Positions 31,630 through 58,634 of a stretch of DNA of 63,876 nt are shown here, in pieces. The notes beneath the pieces were generated by a model that saw only the letters and a list, made by a program, of their open reading frames with translations, was not told the origin of the DNA and did no database searches. The stretch lies in IMG/VR virus record IMGVR_UViG_3300031963_000134, positions 1 to 63,876 of that record, one strand, 5' to 3'. Each line of letters begins with the position of its first letter. Positions within the stretch are counted from its first letter, which is position 1. A program made the translations under genes and the position numbers. The stretch comes from a virus. Lineage: Duplodnaviria > Caudoviricetes.

Positions 31630-31658
31630 AGGGGAGTCTTCGGACTCCCCTTTTTTTT
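31630..31658 (+). terminator. terminator at convergent junction
   Basis: GGGGAGTC-TTCG-GACTCCCC followed by T8. Confidence 0.85.
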
Positions 31659-34600
31659 AGATCTTACTTAAGTTTTGAGCTTTAATAAGATTGGTAATAG
31701 CAGATGCTGGGTCAATAAACGTAGCGTTAATACCAAACATTTTAGCTGTCATATTCCAAATCTTTCTAGATCCTTGTTGTTGCCACTCATATGCTCCAGC
31801 ACGACGTTTATAAAACGCTCTTTCATTACCAAATGCTGAGTCTAACATATTACCCAAAATACTTTGATATGAGTCAAGTGTTGGACCAAGAGCAATAGAT
31901 TTAATATCTGTTAAATCTAACAAGTTATCTAAACCAAATTTTGGTAATGGTAATAACTGTTCATTCTCTGAACGAATTTGAATTGCTAAATTGAGTGTGT
32001 GCAAACCTAACCAACCAAACAAATCAAATTCATTATTATCTTCTGCTACAAATGGAATAGGTAATGGACCACTCATCTGACGAAGTTTTTCATATTTATC
32101 TTCATCATCAAGATCAAACCCAAATGATCCAATAATCAAATCAAGAATCAAAAGCATTGAAACTTCAGCAAGTACTCTTAATGAAGCTGCAAATACTTCT
32201 TTATCCTTATATATCTGAATAGGATCTAGATTTTTAATCGCATTCCATAAACCTTTTATAAAGGTGACATAATAACCTTGATCTTGTTGTCCATACCCTG
32301 GATTCCATCTTCTTTTACCAAAACGTTGAACAAACATAGTGGTAAAGAATCTTCTCATAAAAGATATAAATCTCCAAAGAATCCATCTTTGAGCTTCAGG
32401 TTGAGCGAAACTTGAATAAGCACCTGTAAGCTTTTGCATAACAGCTTGAACCTTATTACGGAACAACTTAAAGAGGTTATTATCAATTTCTACTTCTAAT
32501 TGTTTATTGACTAAAGCGTCATACTTCTTATTGATACCAGCTATTTCGTTTTCATCTCTAGCTAATGCAATTTTTTCTTTACGAGACTTTTCAAGTTCTT
32601 CTACATTTTTAAGTCTCTTACTCATCTTCCATTCCTTCTCGATAATTTCTTTCATATCTTCTTCAGGAATGTTATACTTCTCTGCTAGAGATTTTACTGT
32701 ATCACTTTTACTAATTGTATGTTTAGTAGATGTGTTAGCATAACGAATGTCAATACCTTCTTTAAGTTTAATTATACCAGACGCATCTAGTTCCCATGCA
32801 TCCATATAATCAATATCAACTCCGTTCTGACTTACTTTTTTCTTGTACATCATCCCAGCAAATGTTTGGGATGCAGCTTCAACTTCTAAAAACTTTCTAG
32901 GACCTTGTAAAAATCTAAAGGTAGCAACGTCTTTAAATACCGTTCTTGAATATGGATCGTCAGCTCTTTCTCTAAACCTACCTTCTTGAAAGTCAAAGAC
33001 ATCTCCTATCTGCTCAGACAGTCTTTTGTTTGGGTCATACATGCTTGCTGTAGTATCAAACATATATTTAGAAGCCCAAACTTGTCCTTTAGCTAATGAT
33101 GTGTACGTTAAATTTTCACCTGCTGCAGCTTCAATCATTGCTTGAAACTTAGCACCCATCTGGTTTTTAATATCAGACGTTGGGTTAAAAGTAAAAAATG
33201 AAAACGCCGCTCGCTTAAACATAAAGTTCTGGAGGTTAATCAACCATTTCTGATTTGATAAAAACCCAGAAGTCTTTTGACCTAAAAACTCTCGATCATA
33301 AAAGTTTTGAATTGCGGATCGACGAACATACTTACCACCCTTATTAGCGTATGTAATAACTCCTCTATTAACTGCGTCAAAAAAACTAGCCTTCTCCATG
33401 TCTTTAGGCTCATTTTTTTCTAAAACATTTTTAAGAGCTTTAGCAGTAGGATTCATTTTAAGAAGCTGTTTTTTCTGTTCAGCTCCCATCATGTATCTAA
33501 TGATACTGCTTACAACGTCAGTAGATGTTTCTTCATAATCTAGATTATAAAGACCTTGAATTGGAATATTATCAATCTGATCACCAAATGCATCTAGTCT
33601 TACTAATTCTAGTTTAGAATTATAGTTATATTGAGGATCATCTTTGATTTGACCTCTAATCCATTCAAGAAACTTTTTAATGAGTCTTCTAATAAGACTC
33701 ATTTTTTCTTCAGCTTTTTGTCTACTTCTTCCCGATTGAAGCATTTCAAGATTACTCATCTCAAAACGTGGGAAGTCTAGATAAAGACGATCTTTTCTTG
33801 GAAGTCCTTCTTGACTCTTTAAATGGATTTTTGTTAAAGCTTCAAGCGCTTTAAACTTTTTACCATCTAAAGAATTGGGATCAGCATTCTTTAATCTAAA
33901 GTACTCTTCATTAATATAAGGAGAACCTTCTTTGATTTTAGGAAGCCATCCGTTTTCTGAAACACCTCGGTTATCAATATGAATTCCAACAATGGGTTTT
34001 ACTTTACCTGTAGCTTTATCATACCCAGTACGAAACTCTTTCTTTACTACACGAGCATAGAATTTCATTTTAGGTAAACCCGGAATCTTAATTTTATTAC
34101 CGTCTTCGTCTAATATATTAGTTGTCTCATAATACTTAGGATCATTAGGACGGATAACGTTCCATACGTACAACCTTTCGTATTGAGTACCACCCTTTAC
34201 TTTTTTTTCAATGTGGTTGTTATTAAACCACGTTTCAAACTGGGGGTTAGCTTTAAACAACAATTCTCTCAATTCAGAACTTGTATAAAGCAAATCCATA
34301 TTTTTTTGATCAAAAGAAGTAATACCAAACTGGTCATACACTTCTTTCAAATCCATTTTTTCTAGTAAACTATTTAATTGATCTAAATAGTATTCAGTAG
34401 GTTCTTTACCTTGAAGTTCTTTTAACTTAGCAAATTCATTATTAAGCTCTTGGATTTCTGCTTTACTCAAACCTTTGCTTTCTTGAAGCTCTAGAAGCTC
34501 AACCCAACGTTCATATTTTTCTTTAGGAAGAGTCTTATAATAGTCTCTTTCAGCGCTCAACTCATTTAGCTCATCATACTGTTCTCTGGTAAGTCCAGTA

Positions 34601-58300: not shown

Positions 58301-58634
58301 CAAAATTCATATTCTTATATCCAGCACCATAGGATGCTGCTCTTGTATAAGAATATTTATCTCTTGTATGATCTAGATTCTTAAGACCACTTGATAAAGC
58401 TTTAATATAATCTCCAGAAGAATTATTACCTCTAGCTCTAGGACTTGGTACAGGACCAGTATTAAAATCTCCTTGAAGCTGTTGATTTATATTAATAGTA
58501 GGAGGAATACCATCGGGTATATAGTTTGTTAATGTTGGTATGGGAGCTTTTAATAAAGCTGTAGCATCAGATGAAACACTAACTGGTTCGATCGGAGCTG
58601 CACTATATCCTTCAGGAATATTTTTTTCTTCCAT
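52341..58634 (-). CDS. giant virion/ejection protein (2097 aa) with P-loop kinase insert
   Basis: Gly-rich hydrophobic N-terminal segments, degenerate zincin (IIHGLVTK...FVAEAM), GTSGSGKST kinase domain. Confidence 0.8.
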   Translation of the reverse strand: MEEKNIPEGYSAAPIEPVSVSSDATALLKAPIPTLTNYIPDGIPPTININQQLQGDFNTGPVPSPRARGNNSSGDYIKALSSGLKNLDHTRDKYSYTRAASYGAGYKNMNFERYYRHGMYDKLGFNPYRDNETLYNEKGSWWDDGVRAFVPTMKGIGLGFLSGLPGSSLWGDEDYWNKELEKSMAIGTTTRGGVGGWITNFGLNAGYSIGILGEMAVENLALGLISPFTGGTSLGAAGARSALKFDKLTRMLNGSYDTIKQLKNIDSAKSVFDIAKSGAKTVGNFLNPLENTTELVSNAIKGKKSFENMTTLAKMSKSFGAFYNDARQLDLAFSESLLEGAGAKAQHIQNSLDAYYAKHGELPTGEEAQKIADSGDSIKFNTVMSNAALIYTTNKFVFEDMFDRVRAKGRMAASFLEGDKRALTKTAAKEFKVGQTQAYKAAEEAAKWSVKGSLKKIATSPYNPVSLKYLSKNISEAFQEAGQESITAGMLDYERRKLEDPTYASSYNWLSGIAHGMGEQLSLEGLNVFAQGYLTGGILGPLQGGIIKGLNAADNIFQGKDRATIEKERTERQNKIQERNNERINAANFITDNIFVLDKNRRAENNANTITTAQDAKQARQNGDVKAEKDLNFETEFNHMWTLASSNSTNLVIDHFNDILKLDDQAFAEAHDLDISDVADGRKTVQEKIDFAKKLQKQYNLAKEKFANPYEPWTINKEENPIEFAEAVNAYQGWEDGVKHIIFNVNAAEDTASRMSSLSDTLGNKKGFFKSLFTGFKNGKPFSEVNSEDVTVLLDHSQRGQMKKALSSQISILETGTDEQKAEAEKLKKKLDLLNAWDAKADHNSRLIKTTELSEFSPQENERRKKYAQFRKGAKVVDKKTGEEFTIASVLKDGTATLKDSKGKEKTVNRLDAVDAYDVSKESTMPEKYAGMGDDVSESLADLYDTYVEYMRYIASMNDVEIMDSSLNEAFDMIKDFYYLDNDRQALAKTINMLSDPQYFSRYADIRKKIREELAKRKKEIVLKGYNKSKEYEDKNSLLSKLFDLGVFVPEDEMIYLIKNDLRGEQLQDGSYGGVTFYDTVNKKVVPFNSELFKKILDVVEEYEKNNAATVLGKAIIEEKEVVRFFNLGKYQDDERTLADLGEQFGFDPRAESTTVSAQELILSLIDSTYIRDQQSRALLKRLLSVIPEDAKVTFVKNLESMNKYDPSTKELFIDARYASSDYMGTTGYPIESSIIHGLVTKVATEQVLDDKATSDKITDLRDLTIKHLKGKTDIDPRIKALIEEDVALSDNVNFVAEAMMNEAFQKLLGEIKIDPKERPQYKNDVWKEFIQAVKEFLASAFKIDSNATVLESVQELFGQGLEQVSIPSETETVAKPEGKTQTGKEVKVTTPVENMDRELLEKLVTLYREEFREDDITPKFDAPYDEIVVSTTFKQMVQSNSRARDIIKRYNEEKQFVPAEEKKSLTKIEPKRKIPSKGETILFSGPASKQGEADTVVLVDKTFVVEEVKSDWNDELNREEKLIRLRDPETNELYLIDMKSEDASQYVIEKTTPVTTAGTFTPTTTYGTPTGPELTTATTPVSDVEAKKADIILPIGTSGSGKSTWIKSVNKNNEFVVISPDEMRIEFTGDINDKSKDDEIYEAVKERAINAVKEGKRVIIDSTNLRKDRRRPFINAVKEALPTANIKYKLMPLNPELAKQRIKADIAAGVERADVSDATIDRHAATYIEMLQDIKSEDISNYDAEPATLEAKPEVVPSAEPVKAPDIEKERRKELGDTATLRFSPIGFVGYDVYGRRYEIISKKDKYGRSLEYTKNGERFTFNPLTVRENVLSPYNVPDAFVELYSKDPRPINEKYDAMYLDAVSKGEMSREQAMQALEKAGRKNSVVYKELASLEQTAKPKEPVETGRTFNTVEELSEAWNDIQSVEDAKAWYDKAVLSLGIIDNRFTAEVIDEMYQKAIIKFAKEVKFKDLTVGKVVIMFDKTLRKVVSNNGKTVVLGSINAQESSPKDLKPLEFTKGTFKKNGIMYMANENLNTVLEEQKKITPEDNKASNEVVNSMADDDMSADERYEYVKTKSLAEIEQESLEILISCNVK

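Follow-up and report, generated by a model that had tools for sequence, protein, structure and literature searches.

Three adjoining minus-strand open reading frames (ORFs), here called genes A, B and C, fill positions 31657-58634 of a 63,876-nt stretch of viral DNA (Duplodnaviria; Caudoviricetes), which corresponds to positions 1 to 63,876 of IMG/VR record IMGVR_UViG_3300031963_000134 and is referred to below as the window. Judging from orthology, their products are probably the virion-packaged, host-injected RNA polymerase (RNAP) proteins of a crAss-like phage. All four cysteines (Cys) of the three proteins lie 3-7 residues from ends that face a neighbouring protein, and this placement proved not to be a quirk of the window: it is a rule conserved across crAss-like phages, in which the first protein of a chain carries a C-terminal cysteine, the middle protein one at both ends, and the last protein one at the N-terminus. 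The terminal cysteines track the junctions between proteins, the pair being gone where neighbours are fused and a new pair being present where a protein is divided. A pairwise rule of this kind is best explained by contact between the C-terminal end of each protein and the N-terminal end of the next, and we somewhat favour a reading in which the facing pairs would be head-to-tail disulfides that keep the virion RNAP proteins in one linear thread until they are reduced on entry.

Four cysteines in 8,991 residues

Cysteines were counted by script in the three proteins, and their columns were followed in two alignments, one of 44 B sequences (A1) and one of 47 C sequences (A2). The genes and the cysteine codons, in the order of the chain, are:

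52341..58634, minus strand: gene A, 2097 aa, first protein of the chain; sole cysteine at residue 2094, fourth from the end; N-terminal end without cysteine
52353..52355, minus strand: codon of A Cys2094 (..ISCNVK, then stop), TGT
37631..52351, minus strand: gene B, 4906 aa from the first ATG, middle protein and predicted virion RNA polymerase; cysteines only at residues 7 and 4900
52331..52333, minus strand: codon of the N-terminal cysteine of B (residue 7; MKCLL), TGT; invariant column C7 in A1
37652..37654, minus strand: codon of the C-terminal B Cys4900 (..MMCLFGIGK, then stop), TGT; the C-terminal cysteine column is nearly invariant in A1
31657..37623, minus strand: gene C, 1988 aa, last protein; sole cysteine at residue 4; C-terminal end without cysteine; N-terminal zincin domain
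37612..37614, minus strand: codon of C Cys4 (MSRCLNLS), TGT; invariant column C4 in A2

A preliminary description, made by eye from the sequence alone, had given the positions and codons of these cysteines, and the count agreed with it at every coordinate; no internal stops and no further cysteines were found in A, B or C. It was also right that the outer ends (MEEKNIPEG at the A N-terminus, ..AQNLSKI at the C C-terminus) lack cysteine and that the genes abut in the same order. The start of B that it had read, MKCLL, corresponds to the second ATG (52339), while the ORF from the first ATG begins MLNNMKC. The true start of B is likely at 52339, since a database protein 99% identical to B (P0061) begins at MKC and the 11-nt overlap of A and B then becomes a 1-nt spacer, with the stop of A 1 nt before the ATG of B. 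From this start the cysteine is residue 3, which fits the homologues and the usual offset.

The 38 plus-strand ORFs of the window, with 112 cysteines in 8,313 residues (1.35%), were taken as the baseline. At this rate ~121 cysteines would be expected in A, B and C, against the 4 seen (0.044%). For A, B and C, the reading frame itself contains 1, 2 and 1 TGY codons, respectively, against 26/139, 62/243 and 33/75 TGY triplets in the other two frames. Under uniform placement, the chance of all four cysteines falling within 7 residues of the four facing ends is (28/8991)^4 = 9.4e-11.

Conservation of the terminal cysteines

The rule can be stated as one cysteine 1-10 residues from the C-terminal end of a protein that stands before another chain member, and one at residue 2-7 of a protein that follows one, the rest of each protein being purged of cysteine. 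The preliminary description had looked to orthologous trios and to the cultured phages crAss001 and phi14:2 for recurrence of the terminal cysteines, and these are kept in such trios down to ~22% identity and are present in both phages. In 219 homologues, 289 of 379 cysteines (in 625,647 aa) are no more than 10 residues away from an end, compared with an expectation of 2.65, and internal cysteines are absent from 167 of the proteins; the cysteine frequency in relatives is 0.056-0.061%. Homologues of C (n = 60, down to 23% identity) have a cysteine at residue 2-7 in 59 cases, as their only cysteine in 51, and the single exception is a 1,113-aa fragment. Proteins found with B (n = 76) carry cysteine within 10 residues of both ends in 58 cases, of the C-terminal end only in 13, of the N-terminal end only in 1 and of neither in 4. 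The corresponding numbers for the 83 proteins found with A, which mostly have in common with A only a mobile kinase module and still fall into the same three end types, are 17 with both ends, 34 with the C-terminal end only, 30 with the N-terminal end only and 2 with neither. N-terminal cysteines among the homologues of C and B range from residue 2 to 12.

An exhaustive phmmer search with the first 330 residues of C yielded 141 new cluster representatives, 113 of them at least 1500 aa long. Of these 113, 107 have only an N-terminal cysteine, none has a C-terminal one and six have no cysteine, at least one of the six resembling a late start call. The zincin domain of these representatives starts anywhere from residue 1 to ~1480, indicating that the cysteine is bound to the terminus rather than to the domain.

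Whole gene blocks were compared in 74 IMG/VR loci found with the B (RNAP) alignment. The 69 in which the RNAP ORF matched the expression G.D[FY]D[IV]DK were tallied; the five that did not match and were dropped (L005, L017, L044, L057 and L073) show the same pattern in their ORF listing. Cysteines within 10 residues were present on both sides of 64/64 RNAP/downstream and 50/51 upstream/RNAP junctions, or 114/115 junctions overall, and at the one missing junction (L069) the sole cysteine is at -19, counting the last residue as -1. The outer ends of the same proteins served as an internal control: cysteine was found at 1/42 N-terminal ends of first proteins and 1/56 C-terminal ends of last proteins, and both exceptions (L034 and L030) are really middle pieces of four-member chains. 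These outer ends were preferred to the 73 other ORFs of the loci, a poor control with 19 cysteines in the first 10 and 13 in the last 10 residues, being a small sample with uncertain ORFs and starts. The tallied chains hold 262 cysteines in 465,859 residues, and 233 of these are terminal, mostly at -1 to -5 at C-terminal ends (range 1 to 10, modes 1-2) and at +3 to +6 at N-terminal ends. Clustering of the loci by identity of the RNAP core yields 63 groups at 90%, 58 at 70% and 32 at 50%, so the junction count is not driven by duplicates. In chains of two, three and four members, the number of terminal cysteines equals 2 x (members - 1), with none at the outer ends.

The same arrangement is found in named phages. 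In crAss001, gp47 (2341 aa) has its sole cysteine at -3, gp50 (2412 aa) has cysteines at 5, 1334 and -9, and gp49 (1349 aa) has one at 5 only. In phi14:2, the sole cysteine of gp078 (1797 aa) is the last residue (Cys1797), gp077 (2180 aa) has cysteines 3 and 2179, and gp076 (1421 aa) has only cysteine 3. The block of p-crAssphage (BK010471) is a two-member chain, in which gp45 has a cysteine at -2 and gp44 (4070 aa), labelled in its record 'RNAP catalytic subunit fused to unknown RNAP subunit', has one at residue 3 and none at its C-terminal end. A thioredoxin (gp39) and a truncated thioredoxin (gp37) are encoded close to the RNAP block of this phage; these genes and gp47, considered below, were noted together at 1588-4161 and 26978-28245 of L079 (BK010471). 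In Flavobacterium phage Fpv1, gp33 (4401 aa) has a sole cysteine at -2 and gp34 has cysteine 3. The Fipvunavirus phages of Flavobacterium psychrophilum, whose records are not placed in Crassvirales, carry both a crass-type giant RNAP protein and the terminal-cysteine rule (Fpv1, NC_031914, 7763-25788).

Terminal cysteines in fused and divided proteins

Cysteines that belong to junctions should follow them wherever genes are fused or split differently, as the preliminary description had foreseen, and this is what was observed. In fused proteins, the position equivalent to the junction was located by mapping the N-terminal domain of B. The A+B fusion of L053 (4665 aa) has its only cysteine at 4661 (-5), and the junction-equivalent position lies near residue 1720; the corresponding positions are at ~1540 in L065, ~1510 in L078, ~1570 in P0133, ~1845 in P0131 and ~2510 in P0121. 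No cysteine was present near the mapped position in any of these six. Two further proteins with A-type and B-type parts, P0128 and P0132, have a single cysteine as the last residue, and P0126, with B-type and C-type parts, has zero cysteines in 4,424 aa. In P0130 the B sequence continues into the start of C for ~200 residues, and the protein closes there with a cysteine, the split point and the cysteine having moved together.

Division of a protein has the opposite outcome. A 655-aa piece in L030, whose only cysteines are residues 3 and 655, matches an internal stretch (3401-3851) of the B protein of L022 at 48% identity; the only cysteines of that B protein are 3 and 4029. In L034, A is divided and the new ends carry cysteines at -2 and 5; the equivalent place in the intact A proteins of L021 and L024 is free of cysteine. 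A 5349-aa protein (P0122) with Cys5 only was considered as a B+C fusion and was left unclassified after a C-type domain was not found in it.

The rule acts on proteins

The window by itself could suggest a device at the level of translation, in which matched cysteine codons would be take-off and landing sites of ribosome hopping of the T4 gene 60 type, or would belong to stop-start coupling, so that one polyprotein is made. The window genes abut, TGT codons flank each stop-start site at distances of 22 and 40 nt, and some C-terminal cysteine codons stand directly before the stop, like the take-off codon of T4 gene 60, which is directly followed by a stop. The comparison of loci leaves this explanation very improbable. 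In crAss001, gp47 is encoded on the strand opposite to gp50 and gp49 and yet keeps its C-terminal cysteine, which brings the explanation close to refutation. Gaps of 502-1837 nt are found at 11/115 junctions; TGT and TGC are both used, and the codons differ within the pair in 21/115; and every N-terminal cysteine has an ATG 1-5 codons before it, which argues for independent initiation. Given the opposite strand, the long gaps, the differing codons and the separate ATG, the rule acts on proteins and not on translation. Programmed translational bypass, which needs take-off and landing codons in cis and a short distance apart, was rejected on the opposite strands, the gaps of up to 1837 nt and the 21/115 codon mismatches.

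Other known uses of a terminal cysteine were also rejected. A split intein or trans-splicing, which requires intein halves (Hint fold, ~100 aa or more in total) on either side of the junction cysteine, does not fit the 0-9 residues (in one case 18) that follow the C-terminal cysteine or the 1-5 that precede the N-terminal one, and the Pfam scan detected no intein family. A lipoprotein lipobox is preceded by a signal peptide of ~15-25 residues that ends before the cysteine, for which a cysteine at residue 3-6, right after Met plus 1-4 residues, leaves no room. In a CaaX prenylation box the cysteine is exactly fourth from the C-terminal end, and the offsets observed here run from 1 to 10 with only 13/115 at position 4.

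Eleven loci (L020, L048, L058, L060 and L075 among them) contain inserts of 0.5-1.8 kb between chain genes, in which homing endonucleases or other small genes are possible.

Identity and domains of A, B and C

By its domains and gene order, the A/B/C block appears to be an unusually large virion RNAP block of the crassvirus type. The features on which this assignment rests, with the additional modules, are:

43865..43879, minus strand: DFDID catalytic motif of a predicted two-barrel RNA polymerase, B residues 2825-2829 (alignment A1 and blastp)
49277..49291, minus strand: HEAWH (HExxH, zincin-type), B residues 1021-1025; H1021, E1022 and H1025 invariant in A1
38696..40426, minus strand: SF1 helicase-like module, B residues ~3976-4552 (AAA_30, AAA_19, PIF1 and Viral_helicase1 in the Pfam scan)
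53430..53864, minus strand: P-loop kinase module (AAA_33 / polynucleotide-kinase-like), A residues 1591-1735 (domain scans)
37087..37101, minus strand: HEFSH (HExxH zincin), C residues 175-179; H175, E176 and H179 invariant in A2

A first motif scan of B (D.D[GA]D) missed the catalytic site, which alignment A1 revealed within the sequence GSDFDIDK; D2825, D2827 and D2829 are invariant in the 44 sequences. The motif aligns with DFDID 1361-1365 of phi14:2 gp077 and with DFDVD 1483 of crAss001 gp50. Phi14:2 gp077 is the 2180-aa crystallised virion RNAP, there called 'gp66', with DFDID at 1361-1365 (preprint 10.1101/2020.03.07.982082). Similarity between B 2784-3139 and gp077 1320-1666 is weak and local (blastp E = 1.3e-16); with the DFDID motif it bears out the label 'RNAP' that B had been given, and it places B, on alignment evidence, with the catalytic two-barrel RNAPs of the phi14:2 gp66 family. 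Comparison of B and C with Protein Data Bank (PDB) sequences by phmmer produced no match (for B, none at E <= 1). The HExxH zincin motif of C marks it as the counterpart of the zincin protein that adjoins the RNAP in phi14:2 (10.1101/2020.03.07.982082).

The SF1 (PIF1/RecD-like) helicase module is fused behind the RNAP of B and, as the Pfam lists indicate, is present in some of the homologues; blastp found no similarity to the helicase part of B in phi14:2 gp077 or crAss001 gp50. The P-loop kinase module of A reaches 81% identity between giant proteins that are otherwise unrelated (P0144-P0217) and appears in first-, middle- and last-type chain members, as a highly mobile and well-conserved cargo module.

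A proposed head-to-tail disulfide thread and its alternatives

The comparative tests, each with the outcome foreseen in the preliminary description, strongly support a function specific to protein junctions. The preliminary description had proposed that disulfides or a shared metal site link the three proteins into a chain, which would serve stoichiometric packaging, ordered ejection and release by reduction. The junction-specific part of that proposal stands; a single metal site formed by all four cysteines fits poorly with two-protein chains and was rejected, two-member chains having only two such cysteines.

In the disulfide reading, the C-terminal end of A would be bonded to the N-terminal end of B, and the C-terminal end of B to the N-terminal end of C, the bonds forming once the packed proteins exit the reducing cytoplasm. 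Separately translated proteins would then make up one unbranched thread of ~9,000 residues with uniform N-to-C polarity, and with the bonds at the very ends the side stubs would be only 0-9 residues, so that the thread stays linear. Partly unfolded, it would go through the narrow tail channel with each protein drawing in the one behind it, as a functional equivalent of the single 3,500-residue virion RNAP (vRNAP) of N4-like phages. The reducing host cytoplasm would open the bonds, after which the three proteins could fold and act separately. Any other cysteine would scramble the pairing, which would account for the extreme purge, and with a disulfide standing in for the peptide bond, fused and split forms would be equivalent threads. 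Extended to the family, the proposal is that of a modular, covalently concatenated thread of 5,000-10,000 residues, ejected in order and cut by the host cytoplasm, for which fission and fusion would be nearly neutral; we consider this general form, too, a little better than even.

Several considerations lead us to favour a disulfide. One thiol per end is enough for it, while a metal site needs more ligands and none are conserved. Inter-subunit disulfides are present in crAss001 virions, which also contain gp47, gp49 and gp50 (PMC10172136). An extra thiol could mis-pair, which would explain the purge beyond the argument from passage through the periplasm. Placement at the ends would matter because it is the only geometry that keeps cross-linked chains linear and because such proteins pass constrictions partly unfolded: gp47, gp49 and gp50 of crAss001 must partly unfold to pass constrictions of <50 Å (PMC10172136), and the N4 vRNAP is described as beads on a string that is threaded unfolded (PMC13434306).

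A number of points weigh against the disulfide thread. The bond, its formation after lysis or packaging, the ordered ejection and the reductive release are all things that we infer from sequence. The cytoplasm in which assembly occurs is reducing, and the anoxic gut is the habitat of many such phages; the bonds may form late or never, so that alone they could not explain co-packaging. Little sequence is conserved around the terminal cysteines, with no docking motif for specific pairing. The purge is not absolute: at least one internal cysteine occurs in 52/219 homologues, and in named phages there are seven in p-crAssphage gp44, two in gp45 and one (Cys1334) in crAss001 gp50. For the sole cysteine of p-crAssphage gp47 (857 aa), at -2, the gene that follows (gp46) offers no evident N-terminal partner. 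Bayfield et al. compared reduced and non-reduced crAss001 virion samples, and in the accessible text of that report no shift is given for these proteins (PMC10172136). A complex prediction from the single sequences of the C-terminal 200 aa of B and the N-terminal 330 aa of C (score 0.22, mark 0.34) speaks neither for nor against the thread.

The facing cysteines might instead join neighbours without a disulfide, through a bridging metal (Zn, Fe or Cu), which a pair of chains might share in the manner of the Rad50 zinc hook, or through other thiol chemistry, including thioester ligation to a peptide bond. For the pairwise junction rule, contact between the two ends is sufficient; a reducing cytoplasm or anoxic gut, which would prevent disulfides, would still allow metal bridges; and a His stands beside the cysteine in some C-terminal ends of B (..KHCFI, ..QHCM). 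However, a junction with one cysteine per end has only two ligands; no further Cys, His or Asp is conserved beside them, and two-member chains have just two such cysteines. Ligation of the native chemical type needs Cys as residue 1, and here it is residue 3-6 behind Met; the 0-9 residues after the C-terminal cysteine leave no room for an intein-like domain. We regard this family of links as unlikely. A third party that binds or modifies each terminal cysteine separately, such as a capsid or portal anchor, or a packaging or processing mark, would agree with the many inter-subunit disulfides among crAss001 virion proteins and with the lone C-terminal cysteine of p-crAssphage gp47, which lacks an evident partner. 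It is nevertheless doubtful, leaving unexplained why the first N-terminal and the last C-terminal ends are free of cysteine (1/42 and 1/56, both exceptions being accounted for), why cysteines are lost jointly on fusion and gained jointly on fission, and why counts are always 2 x (members - 1).

The pairing could also be different, with the N-terminal cysteine of B bonded to its own C-terminal cysteine in a closed loop and A bonded to C. The counts of three-member chains fit this equally well, and in B the two ends belong to a single molecule. Partners would, however, have to be re-assigned at every fusion or fission (in an A+B fusion, the C-terminal cysteine of B would have to switch from the N-terminal end of B to C), while under head-to-tail pairing each such event adds or removes one self-contained pair; moreover, a closed loop of 2,000-4,900 residues cannot pass a narrow channel as a single strand. 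Cyclisation of B is quite improbable on these grounds.

Comparison with known systems

The closest known systems are the gp65/gp66/gp67 block of phi14:2 (gp076/077/078 in KC821624) and gp47/gp49/gp50 of crAss001, with which the window block has in common the two-barrel catalytic core (DFDID, as in phi14:2 gp66), the zincin HExxH protein, the gene order and the giant sizes, and in which the terminal-cysteine pattern is identical to that of the window. The proteins of both blocks have been found in virions by mass spectrometry and are translocated into the host (PMC10172136; 10.1101/2020.03.07.982082). The window proteins differ in being much larger (B, 4906 aa, versus 2180-2412 aa), with the SF1 helicase in B and the P-loop kinase in A as additions, and in the split points relative to the domains: the HEAWH-type domain lies in B here and near the C-terminal end of gp47 in crAss001, so that domains cross junctions. 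The accessible text of the papers on the two blocks does not mention the cysteine rule (PMC10172136; 10.1101/2020.03.07.982082).

Ejection proteins of the Schitoviridae (N4 gp50; DEV gp71/72/73) likewise deliver a giant virion RNAP through a narrow tail and show extreme suppression of cysteine. In homologues of DEV gp71 the cysteine frequency is 0.00075%, explained by passage through the disulfide-forming periplasm (PMC11445570). The N4-type vRNAP is one polypeptide with no cysteine, whereas the crass-type consists of 2-4 polypeptides whose facing ends keep cysteine, and the RNAP folds of the two types are unrelated (PMC13434306). In crAss001, disulfides of the gp57 dimer, the tail hub and the ring proteins give a precedent for inter-protein bonds in crassvirus particles (PMC10172136); those bonds fasten the fixed, symmetric lattice of tail and capsid, whereas the pairs proposed here would join mobile cargo in a linear order and would need to be reversible. 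The working of the proposed thread recalls AB-type toxins by analogy only, not homology. In these toxins a single disulfide tethers the cargo chain during membrane translocation, and the reducing cytosol opens the bond and frees the cargo. The two toxin chains come from one nicked precursor and their bond is not end-to-end, whereas here the end of one separately translated protein would be connected to the start of the next, along a series, within a phage capsid.

The finding has known kinds behind it, namely cysteine-purged ejection proteins and reducible inter-chain tethers. Full-text literature searches, which do not reach supplements and extended tables, returned no description of the terminal cysteines of crassvirus cargo proteins. 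The words 'cysteine' and 'disulfide' do not occur in the accessible text of the phi14:2 preprint (10.1101/2020.03.07.982082), as distinct from the final Nature text, nor in that of the N4 paper (PMC13434306, 2026). The means by which podovirus-like phages drive megadalton protein cargo along a channel too narrow for the folded proteins, and the order in which it passes, are described as an open question (PMC10172136, PMC13434306), on which the rule offers a concrete handle: it involves four residues in each of the cultured phages crAss001 and phi14:2 and is directly testable there. It tells which protein end meets which and so predicts the order of the thread, and it would explain the tolerance of the RNAP block for fission, fusion and domain shuffling. 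If the thread exists, phage cargo would be ordered and delivered in a way not recognised before, and the purge of all other cysteines would be explained. The rule is also a simple annotation aid, for chain members and for wrong start calls, in the most abundant human-gut phages.

The window and its neighbouring genes

The IMG/VR record of the window is estimated to be 52% complete. Searches with the window DNA and with the last 1000 aa of B detected no near relative among deposited phage genomes, and the DNA polymerase of the window matches unrelated phages at <=35% identity, from which no placement follows. A 162-aa ORF at window positions 53449-53937 (plus strand), antisense inside gene A, is probably spurious.

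A further cysteine-poor protein is encoded upstream of A:

58637..61882, minus strand: protein D, 1081 aa (MATYIPG..); cysteines only at residues 128 and 134

Proteins beginning with MATYI are encoded upstream of A in many loci. The ends of D carry no cysteine, and D stands outside the terminal-cysteine rule. Its two cysteines (codons 61499-61501 and 61481-61483) form a lone pair six residues apart, and similar lone close pairs occur at the matching upstream position in crAss001 gp45 (Cys 390 and 398) and phi14:2 gp080 (Cys 369 and 378). The likeness is one of position only, and in cargo protein C1 the close pair may mark a conserved site of disulfide formation or metal binding.

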